From a candidate division WWE3 bacterium (GTDB lineage: Bacteria; Patescibacteriota; WWE3; JAPLWK01), in assembly GCA_026396615.1 (NCBI GenBank), contig JAPLWK010000009.1:1-43272 (forward strand): DNA of 43,272 bases, written 5' to 3'. Each line of letters begins with the position of its first letter. The stretch's first letter is position 1. Made by a program: the position numbers and the translations under genes. A model generated the notes under the pieces. The model saw only the letters and a list, made by a program, of their open reading frames with translations. It was not told where the DNA came from and did no database searches. Shown piece by piece: positions 4,081-43,272 of this stretch.

Positions 4081-4497
4081 TTATACCAAAATCGCGTCTT
4101 CTGATTTTAACAAATAGCGCTCTAAAATAATAGTCGCCGCCATGCTGTCCAAGTGACGACGGGCGTGAGCTGGAGTATCCAAATCAATTGACCGCGCCAA
4201 CGCCTCTTGCGACGAGTAACTTTCCGGAAACAAGCAGATCGGTAGCGACGAACGTCGTTTTAAAAACTGAGCAAACTTTTGCGTTAATGTACTCTGAGGA
4301 TTGATTGCCCCATCCGACGACAAAGGGTAGCCAATAATGATTTTTTCGACGTCACTGCCGACAATTATTTTGATTAATTCGAAAGCCGCACTTTCCCAAT
4401 TCCTGGAATCAATGGATGTGAGTGGTGAAGCAACATCGCCTTCCGCCAACGCCAAGCCCAAAAAACGCATCCCAAAGTCAATCCCGAGTAATCTCAT
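4081..4497 (-). CDS. ruvX: Holliday-junction resolvase-like nuclease RuvX/YqgF
   Basis: 138-aa ORF. MRLLGIDFGMRFLGLALAE... is a YqgF-type N-terminus. The gene is tightly packed with mltG downstream. Confidence 0.8.
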   Translation of the reverse strand: MRLLGIDFGMRFLGLALAEGDVASPLTSIDSRNWESAAFELIKIIVGSDVEKIIIGYPLSSDGAINPQSTLTQKFAQFLKRRSSLPICLFPESYSSQEALARSIDLDTPAHARRHLDSMAATIILERYLLKSEDAILV

Positions 4498-7517: not shown

Positions 7518-7800
7518 ACAAGGTAATTACATCTTGAAGAACGCTGGGGCTAATGTATTTGTTCAAAGATTTTTTAGTTACCAAATCAACCTTTCGATTA
7601 TTAAAGATATTTTCGGAGAGATCATATTCGATACCGACGTGACGAAGTAGGCTGGGAGTTTCCAAAAACTCCACCAGCAGATCAATATCGCTTTTAGAGT
7701 CGGCCTCGCCTCTCGCGAAAGATCCAAAAAGCCCCAAATACGAAATCTGATTCTTCTGACATAGTTTATTTAAATTTTCCTGTTCGTAATGTAATTGCAT
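7504..7800 (-). CDS. mntA: MntA-like minimal nucleotidyltransferase antitoxin
   Basis: 98-aa ORF with the motif GLFGSFARGEADSKSDIDLLV (G-S...D-x-D of pol-beta-fold NTases). Confidence 0.8.
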   Translation of the reverse strand: MQLHYEQENLNKLCQKNQISYLGLFGSFARGEADSKSDIDLLVEFLETPSLLRHVGIEYDLSENIFNNRKVDLVTKKSLNKYISPSVLQDVITLYEKK

Positions 7801-35238: not shown

Positions 35239-36468
35239 TTAGGCGGCTGAGGTTTCTTTAGCAGCGTGCCATCTGTATGCTCTTCTGAAGCCGTTGCTCT
35301 CGGCTTCGCCTACGGTTTGGCAGTATATCTCCCCCTTTGATTTTTCTATCTTAGTGTTGTCGTATTGCTGATCAAATGGCAAATGGTAAATTTTAGCGCC
35401 GTCAACCTTTGATATATTACATTTAATGCAAGGGTATTCGTTTAACATTTTAAACTTTTCTTTTATCTCTATACCCAGCTCACCACCGAACCGCCTAGCT
35501 AAATCTGATACCTCAGTTGTCGTATAGAAGACGGCGGTCACCTTTTTATTTGGGTTTTGATCTTTGTACTGAAAAACAGTCCCGAAGAATTGGAAAATAT
35601 GTTTTTCGAATATTGTTTTAAATTGCGACCAGTTTTTGCACTGTATTACCACTATTTCTTTTCCTTTAGCACAAATTAAGTCTCGACCTAAGTCTTCATA
35701 ACCCTTAAATATGCCGGTGTATTCGACATCATAGCCGGCCGTCTCGTACAAATATCCAACATACCGCTCATATAATCTACCCAACAACCATTTGGGCTTA
35801 TTGGGGCGCTTCCAAAACCGATCAAGTGCCATTTGATTTCTTTCCGCAGAGGAAAGTTTGTGATATTCGTCTTTTGTGAGGAAGTTTGTAACCGGGTCGG
35901 CGCTTTCTTCCTCACTATAACCAGCCGCTATTTCTTCGTTTTCATCAAATTCCTGCTCTTTGTAATCTAATAAAAATGGGGCTATGTTCTCGTAATACTC
36001 GATAATAGATTGAGTCACTCGTTGTGATGTTTCCGCTTCTCGTCTCCTCTTAGCTTCTAATTTGACGATTTCGGATGAAGAATACGCTGGGTGCGATTTT
36101 CTGGTTAGGTACCCAGAAAGTGCGTCGTCCATCAATTTTTCATAATTTGAAATATTCTTGAAGAGACTGGGAAATCCAGATGCCCGCTCTTTAAGTGATT
36201 GTCTCCACATACTCTCCTTGGCTTCAGAAGTTTCTAGCTTCTGTTTTAGTAAAGCGATGGCGATTTGTGTTTCAGAGCTGACCTTATCTACAAGCTCTTT
36301 ATATGTTCCGTATGCCACGAAAAATAGGAATACTCCTACCGACAATACCCCTAGCCAAAGACTACTAGTAAGTAAAAAATAAATAAATACAGGGATAACT
36401 AAAACCATGGAAGTCAGTCCATAAGAAAGAAGCTTTGCTAGGTATTTACTGGTGAATTGATTAAACAT
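35239..36468 (-). CDS. membrane-anchored Mrr-like (PD-(D/E)xK) restriction-endonuclease-fold protein with a C-terminal sunset-like domain
   Basis: 409-aa ORF with two N-terminal TM helices and a charged coiled-coil region. The nuclease core is ...YEDLGRDLICAKGKEIVVIQCKNW... The C-terminal KIYHLPFDQQYDNTKIEKSKGEIYCQTVGEAESNGFRRAYRW fits the YH-x-P...EA...G(F/Y)R motif seen at the ends of many nucleases. Confidence 0.6.
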   Translation of the reverse strand: MFNQFTSKYLAKLLSYGLTSMVLVIPVFIYFLLTSSLWLGVLSVGVFLFFVAYGTYKELVDKVSSETQIAIALLKQKLETSEAKESMWRQSLKERASGFPSLFKNISNYEKLMDDALSGYLTRKSHPAYSSSEIVKLEAKRRREAETSQRVTQSIIEYYENIAPFLLDYKEQEFDENEEIAAGYSEEESADPVTNFLTKDEYHKLSSAERNQMALDRFWKRPNKPKWLLGRLYERYVGYLYETAGYDVEYTGIFKGYEDLGRDLICAKGKEIVVIQCKNWSQFKTIFEKHIFQFFGTVFQYKDQNPNKKVTAVFYTTTEVSDLARRFGGELGIEIKEKFKMLNEYPCIKCNISKVDGAKIYHLPFDQQYDNTKIEKSKGEIYCQTVGEAESNGFRRAYRWHAAKETSAA

Positions 36469-36602: not shown

Positions 36603-36611
36603 TGCTAAAAT
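36603..36611 (+). promoter_or_regulatory. extended -10 box, leaderless geometry (trypco2-like gene)
   Basis: TGcTAAAAT (36603-36611), then 6 nt (AACGGT), then the ATG at 36618. There is no SD. Confidence 0.45.
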
Positions 36612-36617
36612 AACGGT

Positions 36618-36917
36618 ATGAAGCTTGATGATTTTGTCGCCGGAGCCCTTTCCGATATAAATAAGGGATTATCGGATGCGAGTAAGGTGACTGGGAAAAG
36701 TTCTTATATAGAAATCTCTAGTCCGAACAACGGAGTACACTTCGATGTCGCAGTGACAACAGCGAACTCAACAGAGCAGTCCGCTGACGGTAAAATTGGT
36801 ATAGGTGTTATACAAGTTGTAGGTTTGGGAGTAAACGCTACAGTCAAGAATAATGATGCAAGTAGCGTGGTAAGCAGGATCCAGTTCACCGTAGTGGTAC
36901 CCCCAGACAGTAATTAA
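36618..36917 (+). CDS. small trypco2-like (trypsin-co-occurring domain 2-like) protein
   Basis: 99-aa ORF. It has an N-terminal helix (MKLDDFVAGALSDINKGLSDA) followed by beta-rich repeats (...VHFDVAVTT...IGIGVIQVVGLGVNATV...SRIQFTVVV), matching the remembered architecture of trypco2 proteins. Not verified by search. Confidence 0.45.
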   Translation: MKLDDFVAGALSDINKGLSDASKVTGKSSYIEISSPNNGVHFDVAVTTANSTEQSADGKIGIGVIQVVGLGVNATVKNNDASSVVSRIQFTVVVPPDSN

Positions 36918-37019
36918 TAAATAAGTAGAGTATATGGGATCAAATCGTAAATGGAATCATCTCGGTGGCGGTGTTTCCTGCTGCAACTCGACTTTGAGCT
37001 TTTATTCTAAAATCAACTT

Positions 37020-38507
37020 ATGGAAAATTCCTGGAATCGACTAACATTGGGACTATATAATCCGGAATCCCGATTGATGGGTGTTGACTACGGGAAACTT
37101 TACCTTGACCCTCTTCGCGCTAAACAAACTCTTTTTCACGAAGTTACACACTCACTTCTTACCTCAACGACAGATTACGGGTTAGCAATCCTACCAATAC
37201 TAAATCTTTTGCCTAAAATCACTTCTATATCCAGGGAAGACAAGGACAAGATAAAACAATCTCTTATGAGAAATCAGACAAATGCACAAGAGGGTTTGGC
37301 AACGCTAATGGAGCTTTTAATGCTGCGGGGAGAAATAGGTAAGCGGGCCAGCCTAATTTGGGCAAGAGCGAACTTAACGCAGGAGTACTACGACTGGTTC
37401 TCACCAATGTCGTTTGTAATCAGTATGAGCAACCGATATAGAGAAAACTTTACAACAAAGATATCAAGAATAACTTTCCAAAATGGATTTAGAAAAGCCT
37501 GCTATGAGAGAGATCTTTTCGGTAATATTAAGGGGCTACAACATTTTCTTGCAAGCCCGAGTGTTTCTCCGGATATCAGACTACTGAAACTGGTACAAAC
37601 AGTAGCTAAGTCACCAAGCTTATTGAAGAAGAGTGAGATCGACATTTGTGCGGCCGCAGATGTTGAATACTTCCCTGACGCAACAAAAGTAGAGGTAGCC
37701 GAGTTTATAAACTACTTGTATGACCTTGCGGGTATTGACCAAAAAATGACTGAAATTGATGTAAAACAAGTTCCTGAAGGTGCGGCTGCCGTTTTAGAAA
37801 ACACGCAATCTCTTATAGTCGCAAACATGAACATTAGACTTTCCGAAAGTGGTATTACACTACCCGAAAAAAATGACCTCTTGCACTACTGTAGTGAATT
37901 TGAAGTAGTAGTGGTCACATTTTTATCTGATGAACTAGAATTTAAACAAACCCTAGAGCATATTAGTGGAAGGAAGCACGATGTTGGGATTCTAGCAATT
38001 ACTAAAAATGGTGAAAAATATATCTATGCGGACTCATTTGATGCTATATCATCATTATTAGATAAAGAACTTAAAGAAAAAACATTGTTAGTAAAATGGG
38101 GACTTTATCAACCGGGTCTGACTTGCATACCTAATATGGATGGCTGTCGTAAGCCCGATGTAGTTATTTTTAATTCCTTAAACGACCTAATTGGAGCCTT
38201 TAGTGAAGCGGCGAGTAGGGGGGATAAATTCCAATATCTTTACCTGTCATCGTCAGAAGACCATCCTTTTAGAACATTGGTGATAAAAGATATCGAAGGT
38301 GTTCTGTATATGCTTAATGCATGGGGAAATGTTGCGATTGATAACTTTCTGCAGAAATCGAACCAAAATTTCATACGCAGTAGCGTTGATAAATTCTTAC
38401 AAGAACACCGGCATTATAACAACGCATTCGCTTTTTGGATGAACTTACCATGGGACATTGACTGGTATAAAACTATGATGAGCACAGACCATGTTATTTA
38501 TAGGTAG
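37020..38507 (+). CDS. hypothetical HExxH-motif protein (putative zinc metallopeptidase N-domain plus a large uncharacterised C-region)
   Basis: 495-aa ORF. It has LFHEVTHSLL at residues 38-47 and a possible third ligand in ...NAQEGLATLMELL... The remainder has no recognisable motif. There is no SD at 37020, and an upstream ATG at 36934 lies in another frame (see findings). Confidence 0.55.
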   Translation: MENSWNRLTLGLYNPESRLMGVDYGKLYLDPLRAKQTLFHEVTHSLLTSTTDYGLAILPILNLLPKITSISREDKDKIKQSLMRNQTNAQEGLATLMELLMLRGEIGKRASLIWARANLTQEYYDWFSPMSFVISMSNRYRENFTTKISRITFQNGFRKACYERDLFGNIKGLQHFLASPSVSPDIRLLKLVQTVAKSPSLLKKSEIDICAAADVEYFPDATKVEVAEFINYLYDLAGIDQKMTEIDVKQVPEGAAAVLENTQSLIVANMNIRLSESGITLPEKNDLLHYCSEFEVVVVTFLSDELEFKQTLEHISGRKHDVGILAITKNGEKYIYADSFDAISSLLDKELKEKTLLVKWGLYQPGLTCIPNMDGCRKPDVVIFNSLNDLIGAFSEAASRGDKFQYLYLSSSEDHPFRTLVIKDIEGVLYMLNAWGNVAIDNFLQKSNQNFIRSSVDKFLQEHRHYNNAFAFWMNLPWDIDWYKTMMSTDHVIYR

Positions 38508-38512
38508 TAAAA

Positions 38513-38797
38513 TTATCCAACAAATAACCCGCAACCACAGGCGGCCCGGTAAGTATTGTGATCCGGGCAAATAGTGGCGGGGCTGTATCGAGTTGATTCT
38601 CCCCCGGCAACCTTTTTACTGTCATGACGACCGAGCTCTTTTAGGAACCGTAGACCGTCCCGGCTTTTGGCAACCTTAGTTATAGGCATTACGTAGTAGG
38701 AAGGCTTTCCGTGTACGGTCACGGCCATAGGAAGCTTTACGTGGTTAAGGTAGTGATAGGGATTTTTGGCGAAGCTCTCAACGTTTATGCTAAACAC
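38513..38797 (-). CDS. Phd/YefM-like N-domain protein with a Cys-rich tail (orphan antitoxin-like)
   Basis: 94-aa ORF with a GTG start. ...FAKNPYHYLNHVKLPMAVTVHGKPSYYVMP... fits the Phd/YefM pattern. The tail is ...ICPDHNTYRAACGCGLFVG. TATAAT (38809-38804) lies 6 nt before the GTG. Confidence 0.45.
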   Translation of the reverse strand: MFSINVESFAKNPYHYLNHVKLPMAVTVHGKPSYYVMPITKVAKSRDGLRFLKELGRHDSKKVAGGESTRYSPATICPDHNTYRAACGCGLFVG

Positions 38798-39187: not shown

Positions 39188-39505
39188 TTAATTCTTACCT
39201 CTTTTTGTCACAAATCTTGTAAATATTGCCGCCAAAAACCCGATTGCTAAATTGATGTTAGTTAAAAGTAGGTCGCTACTTAAATTTTTGTAATTGAGTA
39301 AAAGGTTTATGTTAAAGTTTTTGTCTGTACTTAAAAGAGGGAAAAAAGTAACTTTAAAGATAGAATTTATACCACGGCTCCAAAGCATGGGGTTCGATTT
39401 ATAAACCCAAACTAACGGATTAATAAAGAAAATCCAGAAAATAAGGAAATAAATAACCGCCTCAAATAATGTAATTTCGAACTTTTTAATTTTAAATAAA
39501 ATCAT
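39188..39505 (-). CDS. hypothetical small membrane protein
   Basis: 105-aa ORF, very AT-rich, with 2-3 hydrophobic helices. It lies 38 nt downstream of the Cys-rich protein gene. Confidence 0.45.
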   Translation of the reverse strand: MILFKIKKFEITLFEAVIYFLIFWIFFINPLVWVYKSNPMLWSRGINSIFKVTFFPLLSTDKNFNINLLLNYKNLSSDLLLTNINLAIGFLAAIFTRFVTKRGKN

Positions 39506-39543
39506 TATTTAACCTTCCTATACAAGTCGCTGCGGCCCGTTGC

Positions 39544-40716
39544 TTACTCGCAATAAAGATTAATGTCGTTATTTATTTCGTCGCCAATACCATTAGTCTT
39601 TGATTCAGCAGCTTTTGTAGGGCCTTCGTAGTTGTAGCCATTACCTGAATTTCTAGCCCCGGGGCAGTATTTATCGCTGTTTGAATCCAAGCCGCAGCAT
39701 TTGTTCGAGCAGGAAGACCAATTGTTTGGGTAGTTAATAGCGGGTATCGGCATACCTTGAGACCTTAATATCACAAAGTCAGCGTTAAACTTATCTAGTG
39801 CCTGTTTGTATGTTTCCCAACACTGACTTTGACAAACCCACTCTCTCGCTGCATTTACATAATCTTGTTCCAAAGAAGTAAATAACCCGGCCTTATTAGC
39901 ACTGCAATTCCTAGTGAAATTTAGCCCGTTAAGGAATAAATTAGTGGTCACTTTCCGCTCGGCATAGGCATTTTGATCATCTGTGCAGATATCAGTGGAT
40001 TTTTCCCACTTCCAGGTGTCACCGATGGGGCAACAAACACTCACCTTGCATTCATTTTGGGGAAGTTGAAAATCGCCGCAATGATCGAATTTACAGGTAA
40101 TTATAGGGTCGCTATTCTCTTGTTGAGCCGGCTTTGTGGTCGTGTCGGTGTTTGGATTAGTTGTATTTGGTGTAAGAGCGGTATCTGTAAAAATCTGATT
40201 AATTGCGTCCTGCTCGCTGGCCGCCGCCTCAAAAGCATTTAGCCCCTCAAGTCCATTCGCTAAATCTTTATCTAGCTGGTTTAGCTCTTCAGCTATGACA
40301 CCGTTTCTGTCTCTTAGAATACCAGCTGTCGTGGCCGGTGTTTTAGGGTCAACTAAGCTGTCGTTGTTCCCCGTTAACTCTAAACGAAGATCCTCAAGAT
40401 GAGTTTGAATGCGGGTGCTAACGTCACCAGACGCCGGTAGTTTTACTTTTAAGGCGTTTATCTTACCCAAAAGTGTTAGAAATTGGGCATGGTCAGCATT
40501 TGAAAGTTTTGGTACCGGTGGCACCGAACTTTCTATACCTGATTTCGATTGACTGAGGTAAGCCAATAATTTGGCGGGTAACCCCGAGCTGTATACAGTG
40601 TAGACAAAAAGAGCACTGCCTAAAGCAGTTATAACCAATACAAATGGTAAAAATAGATTCTGGTTATGAAATGCTGACCGAATACCCGCGAATAACCTCA
40701 TACAGCTAAGAAACAC
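39544..40716 (-). CDS. hypothetical membrane-anchored/secreted protein with a Cys-rich C-terminal domain
   Basis: 390-aa ORF with a GTG start at 40716 (an alternative ATG is at 40698). It has an N-terminal TM/signal anchor, a helical region and a Thr/Asn/Pro linker. The final roughly 185 residues contain 14 Cys, including CC pairs. Confidence 0.55.
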   Translation of the reverse strand: MFLSCMRLFAGIRSAFHNQNLFLPFVLVITALGSALFVYTVYSSGLPAKLLAYLSQSKSGIESSVPPVPKLSNADHAQFLTLLGKINALKVKLPASGDVSTRIQTHLEDLRLELTGNNDSLVDPKTPATTAGILRDRNGVIAEELNQLDKDLANGLEGLNAFEAAASEQDAINQIFTDTALTPNTTNPNTDTTTKPAQQENSDPIITCKFDHCGDFQLPQNECKVSVCCPIGDTWKWEKSTDICTDDQNAYAERKVTTNLFLNGLNFTRNCSANKAGLFTSLEQDYVNAAREWVCQSQCWETYKQALDKFNADFVILRSQGMPIPAINYPNNWSSCSNKCCGLDSNSDKYCPGARNSGNGYNYEGPTKAAESKTNGIGDEINNDINLYCE

Positions 40717-41159: not shown

Positions 41160-41489
41160 ATGGAAGATTTAACAATAATCAAAAGATGTCCTCGCTTTGA
41201 ATTCTGCTCTGCTCCCCGGTGTCCTCTCGATCCGTTAATGCAAACACGGTTCCGCTTCCCAGAAGAACAAAAATGCACGCTCGGAAAATCAATCCGGCTC
41301 AAACTGGGTAACGAGCTTCAAAATAAAGGTCTGTTTCCGAAAGAGTTGGGCGGAATTAAATCCTGGAACTCCCGTACCCCAGAATCTAAAGAATCGACCT
41401 TGAAATATTTGGCCTCTGGAGGCATTCAAAGACGAATAACATCGGTTGTACAAAAACGAAAGGAGGAATCCGATTATGGATACCTTTGA
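41160..41489 (+). CDS. hypothetical protein with an N-terminal Cys motif
   Basis: 109-aa ORF with CPRFEFCSAPRCPLDP...C, four Cys, possibly metal-binding. The C-terminus is basic. Confidence 0.45.
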   Translation: MEDLTIIKRCPRFEFCSAPRCPLDPLMQTRFRFPEEQKCTLGKSIRLKLGNELQNKGLFPKELGGIKSWNSRTPESKESTLKYLASGGIQRRITSVVQKRKEESDYGYL

Positions 41490-41727
41490 GTCTAGAGACC
41501 TGATGTTATCGGCGGCGATTTTATCAGAAGGTCTGCCGCTACTAAGAACTAAAGATTTGGGCTCCCACCTAATATTCGTTTTCGGGATGCCCGCCGCCTG
41601 CAAGAAAATCGAGGAGGCTTGGTGGGCCGGAACGCTAACCATTAATGCCTCGATGTATGCGGAAGCCATTAAAAGACTTAAGAATTTAGTACATTCGAGA
41701 TCAATTCCCGGAAAGGAGGTGAGATAA
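41476..41727 (+). CDS. DUF5659-like protein
   Basis: The track ORF was trimmed to the ATG at 41476, which is preceded by AGGAGG. MDTFESRDLMLSAAILSEGLPLL...LIFVFG...INASMYAEAIKRLKNLV fits the DUF5659 pattern common in phages and CPR elements. Confidence 0.55.
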   Translation: MDTFESRDLMLSAAILSEGLPLLRTKDLGSHLIFVFGMPAACKKIEEAWWAGTLTINASMYAEAIKRLKNLVHSRSIPGKEVR

Positions 41728-42266: not shown

Positions 42267-43272
42267 ATGAGTAACTTAAGATATATACGCTACAGCCGAA
42301 AGTCATCAGAACCTAAAGAGAAGCAGGCGTTATCGATTCCTGAACAGAACGCCGAGTGTGAGAAGTATGCCGTCACTAATAATCTAAACATCACCTATCG
42401 TTTAGAGGAAAGTAAGTCGTCATTTAAACCACGAATCCGCCCGGTATTCGATCAAATGCTTAGATTAATTGAAAACGGCGCCGCCGATGCCATCTTAGCT
42501 TGGGCGCCGAATCGTCTTTGTAGAAATCCTGAGGAGGGCGGCCGAATTCTTCAACTTTTACAGGACGGGGTTCTTAAAGAAATTCGAACCACTACTGGCG
42601 AAGCCTACACCCCAGAGTCAGATCATCTTGTGTTACAAATCCATTTTGGAATGGCTAACCAGTACTCACGCAACATCAGCCGAGATGTTCGGCGAAGCTT
42701 AATTCATAAACGGGAGCGGGGTGAATACCCAAGGATGGCGCCGGTTGGTTTTGACACTTTTGGCGAGAAGGGAAGCCGCAACCTTAAACCTAACATTTTA
42801 GAAGCGCCGCTTATTAGAAAGGTTTACGAAATGGCGGCGACCGGTCAAATGTCGTTGCACTACCTGTCTAATTGGTTATTTGATAGTGGCCTACGAACGA
42901 AGAAGGGCAAGCGAATAAGCGTTAGTCATCTTTACAGAATTTTAACGTCACCGATCTATTATGGCTGCTTTTACTCTCTAGGTGAGCTGTACTCTGGATC
43001 TTACGAGCCAATTGTCAGCAAGAATCTTTTTGATCAGGTTCAAGTCGCATTAGGAATTCGTTCCAAACCTCGAATGAATACTTGGAAGTATTGGACTAAC
43101 GGCCTTGTTTATTGCGCCGAATGCGGCTGTGCTATAACCACGACAATAAAAACCAAGCACTACAAGGAGACAGACCGAACCGCCACTTATCTTTATAACC
43201 ACTGCACTCATCGAAAAGGTGGTTGCCACGAGCACCCTATCGGAGCTGACGATTTCCAGCAGTTACTTAAAG
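42267..43272 (+). CDS. large serine recombinase (integrase), N-terminal about 335 aa; gene runs off the window end
   Basis: Hand-translated: MSNLRYIRYSRKSSEPKEKQALSIPEQ... (catalytic-Ser resolvase domain). The recombinase domain is ...ISVSHLYRILTSPIYYGCF... The zinc-ribbon is ...LVYCAECGC...YNHCTHRKGGCH... There is no stop before 43272. Confidence 0.85.
   Translation, partial: MSNLRYIRYSRKSSEPKEKQALSIPEQNAECEKYAVTNNLNITYRLEESKSSFKPRIRPVFDQMLRLIENGAADAILAWAPNRLCRNPEEGGRILQLLQDGVLKEIRTTTGEAYTPESDHLVLQIHFGMANQYSRNISRDVRRSLIHKRERGEYPRMAPVGFDTFGEKGSRNLKPNILEAPLIRKVYEMAATGQMSLHYLSNWLFDSGLRTKKGKRISVSHLYRILTSPIYYGCFYSLGELYSGSYEPIVSKNLFDQVQVALGIRSKPRMNTWKYWTNGLVYCAECGCAITTTIKTKHYKETDRTATYLYNHCTHRKGGCHEHPIGADDFQQLLK

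Follow-up and report, generated by a model that had tools for sequence, protein, structure and literature searches.

Trypco2 proteins (PF19631; Kaur et al. 2020 eLife, PMC7159879) have, together with Trypco1, now been defined as "Pepco", proteins that assemble into a nonameric or decameric beta-barrel pore; they become active once a serine or cysteine protease encoded alongside has cut off their autoinhibitory C-terminal tail, which is charged, Pro-rich, and ~2 kDa in size, behind a conserved Ile (Evans et al. 2025, bioRxiv 10.1101/2025.11.14.688446). Serine and cysteine proteases are the only proteases with which Trypco2/Pepco has been reported in the literature; in the canonical arrangement the small gene stands next to a trypsin-like or caspase-like protease that is usually fused to sensor or nucleoside triphosphatase domains. 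A gene pair that recalls this arrangement occurs in a stretch of 43,272 nucleotides from a candidate division WWE3 bacterium (Patescibacteriota; contig JAPLWK010000009.1), here called the window, where the gene for a 99-residue protein lies directly upstream, on the same strand, of a larger gene for a putative protease of 495 residues with an HExxH motif. A preliminary description of this DNA took the two genes for a candidate undescribed conflict system, in which a Trypco2-like protein would be served by a metallopeptidase. The comparisons presented here favor a different reading, with a probability of roughly 0.6: both genes would be independent cargo of a small serine-recombinase integrative element, adjacent by modular shuffling and not by joint function.

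The larger protein invites comparison with three further systems. Gluzincin peptidases (clan MA(E)) are classically recognized by an HExxH motif that is followed by a Glu in an xEGxA context; in the M1 peptidases this signature takes the form HExxH-x18-E, with the Glu in an NEGFA motif. Proteins of the ImmA/IrrE type (M78) combine an HExxH protease-like domain with a following putative sensor domain and are found on integrative elements; Lit (peptidase U49) is an abortive-infection metalloprotease carried by prophages.

Genomic linkage and promoters

Both open reading frames (ORFs) have the lengths initially reported, and the larger one contains the LFHEVTHSLL segment that had drawn attention to it. 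The gene pair comprises the following features:

36606-36611, + strand: TAAAAT, -10-like box of the small gene, starting 12 nt 5' of the ATG (leaderless-type promoter)
36618-36917, + strand: 99-residue ORF (small protein), C-terminal end ...SRIQFTVVVPPDSN
36918-37019, + strand: spacer of 102 bp between the two genes, with stops in every frame; contains the promoter of the 495-residue ORF
37008-37013, + strand: TAAAAT, -10-like box of the 495-residue ORF, starting 12 nt 5' of the ATG
37020-38507, + strand: 495-residue ORF, with LFHEVTHSLL as residues 38-47

Profile hidden Markov models (HMMs) of both families were run over all six-frame ORFs of the sampled loci. The two families occurred together only in the window and in its two fragment contigs (L024 and L025), which are short pieces of the same arrangement with an identical small protein and are uninformative for linkage. 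The locus is also present in the source metagenomes SRR20698641 and SRR20698644. No small-family gene was found at the other loci of the 495-residue family (0/8), and no HExxH domain at the other locus types of the small family (0/6; L007 type, L030, L031, L032, L033, and L034). The homologs of the two proteins are not genomically linked, an outcome that the preliminary description had itself named as refuting its proposal, and a two-gene system is not supported; together with the separate promoters and the missing C-terminal tail of the small protein, discussed below, this finding argues against the central proposal of that description.

The leaderless promotion suggested for the pair was borne out for each gene individually: a TAAAAT box stands at -12 before both ATGs, and no Shine-Dalgarno sequence was read in front of either. 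Within the spacer, terminator prediction gave no terminator, and neither a tRNA-like remnant nor a T-arm was detected. A TAnAAT box starts exactly at -12 in 8 of the 51 gene starts that were checked in the window, and within -11 to -14 in 10 of the 51 (among them the starts at 7800, 9588, 12565, 16857, 34975, 36618, 37020, and 38797); it looks like the ordinary leaderless promoter of this genome. Most genes with the box at -11 to -14 lack a Shine-Dalgarno sequence, a pattern that suggests widespread leaderless transcription in the source organism. Across the 495-residue family, the gene has its own TAnAAT box 6-8 nt before the ATG in 7/9 loci, window included.

The 495-residue protein

Consistent with the earlier remark that the protein beyond its HExxH segment has no recognizable motifs, the sequence matched nothing in Pfam, NCBIfam, PADLOC, or PHROGs. 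A word-indexed search returned 11 homologs of 486-500 residues with 30-42% identity, and an exhaustive profile search yielded 201 cluster representatives (E<=1e-3), of which 86 reached E<=1e-30; a scan of viral contigs yielded no relatives of the family. In a distant tier of proteins with 450-590 residues (P0111-P0160), the region held in common with the 495-residue protein is confined to residues 30-200; the N-terminal domain alone is common to this wider superfamily, and the C-terminal domain is restricted to the 495-residue family. No hydrophobic segment of transmembrane grade was found in the protein. Its domains and motifs are:

37020-37739, + strand: N-terminal HExxH domain, residues 1-240, almost all-helical in the AlphaFold model
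37137-37151, + strand: HExxH motif, H40 E41 V T H44, invariant in 118/118
37287-37301, + strand: Q90-E91-G-L-A94 motif; E91, the candidate third zinc ligand, at the start of helix 87-106
37779-38507, + strand: C-terminal alpha/beta domain, residues 254-495, specific to the 495-residue family

Conservation of the putative metal site is strict. Every one of the 118 superfamily members whose sequence spans this region has H40, E41, and H44; the downstream Glu, which the preliminary description had noted as a possible ligand, is E91, located 46 residues past the second His of the HExxH motif, and it is invariant among the closest relatives (12/12) and the full-length members (58/58) and kept in 117/118 superfamily members. 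The flanking positions Q90 and A94 are kept in 106/118 and 115/118 superfamily members, and the motif as a whole, QEGxATxME, resembles the NEGFA third-ligand motif of M1 peptidases. Other conserved residues of the N-terminal domain are G11, T51, G54, Y123 (conserved in 98%), P184, and R187; those of the C-terminal domain are N269, N271, K333, K359, P379, N467, D481, and W482. The AlphaFold2 model of the protein (predicted local distance difference test, pLDDT, 85; predicted template modeling score, pTM, 0.81) places the HExxH motif inside helix 31-50 and E91 at the opening of helix 87-106, after a two-helix insert; the lone strand before the active-site helix comprises residues 19-22.

The predicted arrangement resembles that of gluzincins in having the HExxH motif on one helix, the invariant Glu (QEGxA) on a later helix, and a conserved Tyr (Y123) after it. 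It differs from them in the His-Glu spacing of 46 residues, with two helices inserted, as opposed to the x18 spacing of M1; in the near absence of the beta-sheet subdomain; in a C-terminal alpha/beta domain of ~240 residues that is unique to the family; and in lacking a match to any peptidase family or fold. Neither a curated peptidase family nor a zincin fold was found for the protein in Pfam, NCBIfam, PDB profiles, or Foldseek searches of PDB and BFVD, and the PDB sequence-profile searches for this protein and the small one, with three profiles in all (A1, A6, and A5), returned noise only. Because fold, PDB-profile, and Pfam searches were negative, the zinc-hydrolase assignment derives from motif conservation; on this basis, the protein can probably be counted as a new zinc hydrolase of the gluzincin type, likely a peptidase, whose C-terminal domain is specific to its family. 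Of the metallopeptidase assignment originally made, the conserved HExxH...E signature has held up, and the expected correspondence to a peptidase family or fold has not been found. A glyoxalase/VOC-like C-terminal domain was also considered; the Foldseek matches were non-significant (E>=0.016, template modeling score <=0.29), and the candidate was dropped as evidence.

Distant relatives show the HExxH domain in other architectures: two proteins of 789-818 residues carry an N-terminal Trypsin_2 fusion, and two of 508-520 residues end in a SEC-C zinc-binding motif (the four being P0132, P0142, P0082, and P0098). Separately, 14 stretches of the 1133-residue protein P0087 match the profile of the 495-residue family, the best of them at profile positions 422-488; P0087, which also draws many spurious-looking Pfam matches, is apparently highly repetitive, with part of the C-terminal domain reused in it.

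Serine-recombinase elements

Ten independent contexts of the 495-residue family were compared: the window, L001, L003, L005, L011, L012 (on the same contig as L027), L013, L026, L028, and the gene table of P0011; one of the hosts is labeled Candidatus Microgenomatus. In 7 of the 10, the flank includes a gene for a serine recombinase or resolvase, often together with a DUF5659 gene, and three contexts have no recombinase nearby. All-against-all BLAST of the neighborhood proteins identified the serine recombinase (5 loci), DUF5659 (4), HTH_3 (3), and DUF4352 (2), all backbone genes, as the only recurrent neighbors, and the recombinase and DUF5659 genes of the window cluster with those beside 495-residue homologs in other loci. 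The same comparison found no constant immediate partner gene; the genes upstream of the 495-residue homologs vary and include an unassigned 366-residue protein, a divergent resolvase, a PPDK_N pair, an ABC ATPase, an unassigned 275-residue protein, and MurJ. The smallest element, in L012, consists of a 500-residue family member, DUF4352, and the recombinase. A literature search on DUF5659 and on serine-recombinase elements of Patescibacteria returned nothing specific.

In several of these elements and in the related L007 type, which carries a small-family gene, the large serine recombinase gene runs at its 3' end into a tRNA gene on the opposite strand (tRNA-Glu in L012, tRNA-Asp in L028, and tRNA-Trp in the L007 type); the elements are therefore tRNA-targeting integrative elements. 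The regions concerned are:

L029, 10429-12068
L007, 8922-8995
L012, 8389-10120
L028, 2548-4100

Part of the tRNA sequence is supplied from inside the recombinase ORF in these elements. In L012, a stretch of 27 nt (4201-4227) matches the L029 tRNA-Trp with 93% identity over the 3' part of the tRNA, its T-arm and acceptor stem; the stretch is intergenic, upstream of the 500-residue homolog and opposite in orientation to the tRNA-Glu at the recombinase end, and may be a relic of an earlier integration. In L005 (3990-5955), two PPDK_N genes (phosphoenolpyruvate-utilizing, ATP-grasp type; 375 and 284 residues) stand directly 5' of the 489-residue homolog on the same strand; the three genes occupy the distal end of a serine-recombinase/Replic_Relax/Rep element, beside the host gene for arginyl-tRNA synthetase.

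The small protein and its probable relation to Trypco2/Pepco

A profile search placed the 99-residue protein in a family of 617 hits, none of them labeled in Pfam and mostly of 112-125 residues, with hosts that include Shewanella, Vibrio, Nitrosomonas, chlamydiae, and bacteria of the candidate phyla radiation (CPR). Direct scans of the small protein itself in Pfam, NCBIfam, PADLOC, and PHROGs returned no match. The layout of a helix followed by beta-strands, on which the original Trypco2 comparison was based, was reproduced by the AlphaFold monomer model (pLDDT 71; helix 3-25, strands 40-49, 64-67, and 85-92). Foldseek of this model against PDB gave nothing significant, and no Pepco-like structure was found in the PDB copy that was searched.

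Measured against PF19631 (gathering score 24.2 bits), for which a made-up sequence in the trypco2 pattern served as positive control (109 bits, E 1e-31), neither the window protein nor its closest relative P0014 gave a match even at E<=10; the small protein is not a member of PF19631. Within the family, 22 of 120 members match PF19631 below threshold (best E 0.0026), and any other Pfam family is matched by at most 4 members. A reference set of ten plasmid proteins annotated as "trypco2 family protein", whose genes are each followed directly by one for a giant trypsin-like, TPR, or NACHT protein, was aligned with small-family profiles of 2, 4, and 120 sequences using hhalign, with scores of 20.2 (P 0.007), 16.2 (P 0.046), and 20.0 (P 0.01), respectively; these alignments were collinear, but had an HH probability of just 1-5%. 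In a column-shuffle control (n=120) the maximum score was 16.1, and 0/120 reached the real value of 20.2. Conversely, an HMM built from the ten real Trypco2 members found, among 4693 ORF fragments, small-family ORFs as its only non-self matches (E ~0.05).

Shared features extend to a length of ~100-120 residues, to an N-terminal helix followed by strands that end in (S/T)xR[IV]x[FL]x[VL]..P, and to the tails: the proteins most similar to the window protein, at 43-52% identity, end in charged C-terminal tails of 26-36 residues, reminiscent of the cleavable Pepco tail. The small family is probably a remote sister family of Trypco2, as judged from these profile comparisons; what survives of the initial assignment is this remote resemblance and not family membership. 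The window protein itself departs from its relatives and from Pepco in having no tail, ending 9 residues past the SRIQF motif (...VVVPPDSN). Two further natural members without a tail, P0222 and P0249, end 5 residues past the motif. Reading the spacer in every frame revealed no trace of a former tail.

Genomic occurrence of the small family

Trypsin-like or caspase-like proteases adjoining small-family genes were not found in L030-L034. In gamma-proteobacteria (a Shewanella chromosome and marine metagenomes), the small-family gene forms a tight two-gene cassette with an upstream gene for a protein of 171-196 residues, the start and stop codons overlapping or being 4 bp apart. The partner consists of a small beta-domain, a coiled coil, and a hydrophobic C-terminus and has no Pfam match; the 196-residue version was considered as a protease and rejected, as it has no catalytic motif. 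This branch differs from the protease-associated Trypco2/Pepco loci in its non-protease partner, and the cassette may be an undescribed Pepco-like module without a protease. The Shewanella cassette lies beside an IS3 transposase and an integrase remnant. In Candidatus Gottesmanbacteria, a serine-recombinase element with a Prim-Pol/DnaB-type helicase-primase and HTH_17 abuts a tyrosine-integrase element, and the small-family gene sits exactly between the two. In L032, the gene stands alone among housekeeping genes, with no element nearby. The loci with mapped cassettes or elements are:

L033, 5407-6360: small-family cassette
L030, 1146-2002: small-family cassette
L031, 114-1064: small-family cassette
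L034, 1703-8632: Candidatus Gottesmanbacteria, small-family gene between the abutting serine-recombinase and tyrosine-integrase elements

The small gene of the L007 type (P0014) stands beside a serine-recombinase element and is transcribed divergently from an SNase gene; a Trypsin_2-RDD gene is found two genes away, beyond the oppositely oriented SNase gene. In three of the four contexts of CPR type, the small gene occupies the recombinase-distal accessory end of a serine-recombinase element, where the 495-residue gene also occurs. The window and the L007 type both have the small gene divergent from a nuclease gene, and the nuclease families are unrelated: a transmembrane-anchored protein with Mrr_cat and sunset domains in the window, as compared to SNase and Excalibur in the L007 type (L007:1877-2860, - strand). 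This layout could be a coincidence or a recurrent arrangement.

Neighboring genes in the window

The neighbors named in the preliminary description, a membrane nuclease, a Phd-like gene, and a serine-recombinase element, were all confirmed, and with them the mobile-element setting. The left 33 kb of the window are a conserved block of genes for ribosomal proteins, RNA polymerase, and elongation factors. The genes around the pair are:

35239-36468, - strand: 409-residue membrane-anchored Mrr_cat nuclease with sunset domain, divergent from the small gene
38513-38797, - strand: 94-residue weakly Phd/YefM-like gene, convergent with the 495-residue gene; TATAAT box at -12
39188-40716, - strand: two accessory genes, for the 105-residue and 390-residue proteins listed next
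39188-39505, - strand: 105-residue membrane protein
39544-40716, - strand: 390-residue Cys-rich protein with an N-terminal hydrophobic (transmembrane or signal) segment
40961-43272, + strand: element backbone, with genes for 54-residue, 109-residue, DUF5659-like, and 139-residue proteins, then the large serine integrase
41446-41727, + strand: DUF5659-like gene, part of the element backbone
42267-43272, + strand: large serine integrase, truncated, running past the right end of the window; phrog_95, E 3e-55

The nuclease has N-terminal transmembrane helices and matches Mrr_cat (E 1.1e-8, Pfam) and the sunset domain (E 7e-6, NCBIfam); the Phd-like gene has matches in Pfam (E 0.018) and PHROGs (phrog_2268, E 0.003) that both fall under the curated thresholds. 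The 105-residue and 390-residue proteins, whose genes sit between the Phd-like gene and the element backbone, have zero matches in Pfam, NCBIfam, PADLOC, and PHROGs. PADLOC-DB v2 gave no match for the small protein, the 495-residue protein, the nuclease, the Phd-like gene, or the 390-residue protein, and a PHROGs scan found no phage structural genes in the visible portion of the element.

Interpretation of the locus

Under the favored reading, both genes would occupy the variable, recombinase-distal end of the element and would be neighbors here through shuffling of cargo. The 495-residue protein would be a cytoplasmic, stand-alone, zinc-dependent hydrolase, most likely a peptidase; H40, H44, and E91 would form the metal site, with E41 as the general base, in a gluzincin-type arrangement within the mostly helical N-terminal domain, and the C-terminal alpha/beta domain presumably binds or senses a substrate or trigger. 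The gene would be transcribed alone from its own leaderless promoter and would travel with the elements; this combination suggests that the element benefits from it when in conflict with its host, with phages, or with competing elements, and a role in such conflict (exclusion, defense, or counter-defense) is the most likely function of the protein. As an analogy, Lit is likewise a stand-alone HExxH accessory protein on an integrated element, with a plausible exclusion function; it differs in having no sequence match to the 495-residue protein (Pfam). The 99-residue protein would belong to a separate, widespread family with a remote relationship to the pore-forming Trypco2/Pepco, and would have lost its charged tail.

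Several observations weigh against this reading. The order of the two genes mimics that of canonical Pepco loci, where the small gene is followed by a protease-bearing multidomain protein, and the Trypsin_2 fusions in two distant relatives show that the HExxH domain occurs in protease-based architectures. A search for att-like direct repeats, by which the element boundary in the window could have been mapped, found none; long repeats are not left behind by serine recombinases, and the recombinase end of this element lies beyond the contig, so that the place of the small gene within the element is putative. The sampled contexts amount to only 10 for the 495-residue family and 7 locus types for the small family. 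Known defense genes are not obviously enriched around the homologs, and PADLOC gave no match. For the peptidase part of the reading, Foldseek of the 495-residue model against PDB and BFVD returned no match at E<=1e-3, and a member-by-member Pfam scan of the HExxH domain returned no recurring family and no peptidase family.

Among other interpretations, the small gene may not be cargo at all; it could be a gene of the chromosome, or a relic from an older island, at an integration hot spot, 3'-truncated possibly by the insertion and maybe decaying or non-functional. The tail is absent, unlike in all closest relatives; the gene sits exactly at the junction of host-like genes (GreA, membrane proteins, and the nuclease) and the element, the P0014 relative holds the same junction position beside a different element, and the L032 relative is embedded in housekeeping genes away from any element. 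Yet the ORF is intact and preceded by a canonical promoter box, two other members are naturally tail-less, no tail remnant remains in any frame of the spacer, and the L034 copy lies between two mobile elements, so that this explanation is possible but doubtful. For the larger protein, a function in the life cycle of the element appears unlikely, either as an ImmA/IrrE-like anti-repressor protease that triggers excision by cleaving the repressor of the element or as a directionality factor of the serine integrase. Such directionality factors are diverse, serine-recombinase elements consistently carry the gene (down to the minimal one of ~3 genes), the HExxH domain with its C-terminal putative sensor parallels IrrE, IrrE is the sole metallopeptidase in the PDB profile list, and HTH_3 regulators occur within a few kb in 3/9 loci. 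Against these parallels, the best IrrE match (E ~0.9) is not significant, a Pfam match to Peptidase_M78 is lacking, and the 495-residue protein has about double the length; in the window, no HTH gene adjoins the gene for it, and neither in the window nor in most loci is there an adjacent, co-transcribed repressor, the HTH_3 genes being a few kb away. Moreover, the related elements of the L007 and L034 types do without the 495-residue gene, so that it serves no core function, and three contexts have no recombinase nearby.

It is similarly improbable that the 495-residue protein is not a peptidase and that its HExxH...E site catalyzes some other hydrolysis, the substrate being for instance a small molecule or a cell-wall fragment with an amide or ester bond, or only binds a metal structurally. 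The model is structurally unlike any zincin peptidase and has almost no beta-sheet ahead of the active-site helix, whereas zincins normally bind their substrate via an edge strand; the faint matches of the C-terminal domain are to glyoxalase/VOC-like proteins, whose fold is typical of small-molecule metalloenzymes. This interpretation has to contend with the gluzincin signature itself, with Y123 as a candidate transition-state residue, and with the trypsin-like fusions of distant relatives, which suggest a proteolytic context. These same fusions can be counted in favor of the two genes forming a conflict module after all, in which a latent Pepco-like pore-former would be activated by the sensor-coupled 495-residue metalloprotease, in a swap of protease class; so can the remote relation of the small family to Trypco2, the gene order and strand, the conserved HExxH...E site of a partner with an extra domain that might sense a signal, and the mobile-element setting. 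With zero co-occurrence in 8 + 6 other locus types, a separate promoter for each gene, a literature in which serine and cysteine proteases alone accompany Trypco2/Pepco, and a window protein that has no cleavable tail, whereas Pepco activation needs the removal of the tail after a specific residue, such a module is quite unlikely. Functional adjacency in its fullest form, a Pepco-like pore-former recruited by a sensor-coupled metalloprotease of new fold as anti-phage cargo on integrative elements of ultra-small Patescibacteria, is a long shot; if true, it would be the first Pepco-type effector under zinc-protease control.

Implications

Both families are uncharacterized and absent from curated libraries. 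The 495-residue family combines a conserved zinc-site signature with a confident structural model that has no neighbor in PDB or BFVD, and is a tractable candidate for a new metallohydrolase fold; given its consistent link to small serine-recombinase elements of poorly studied, uncultured bacteria, it could also help to show what cargo these elements bring along. Through the small protein, a large and unannotated family has come to light, probably a sister of Trypco2/Pepco and found without adjacent proteases, which prompts one to ask what controls Pepco-like proteins that have no protease gene beside them.

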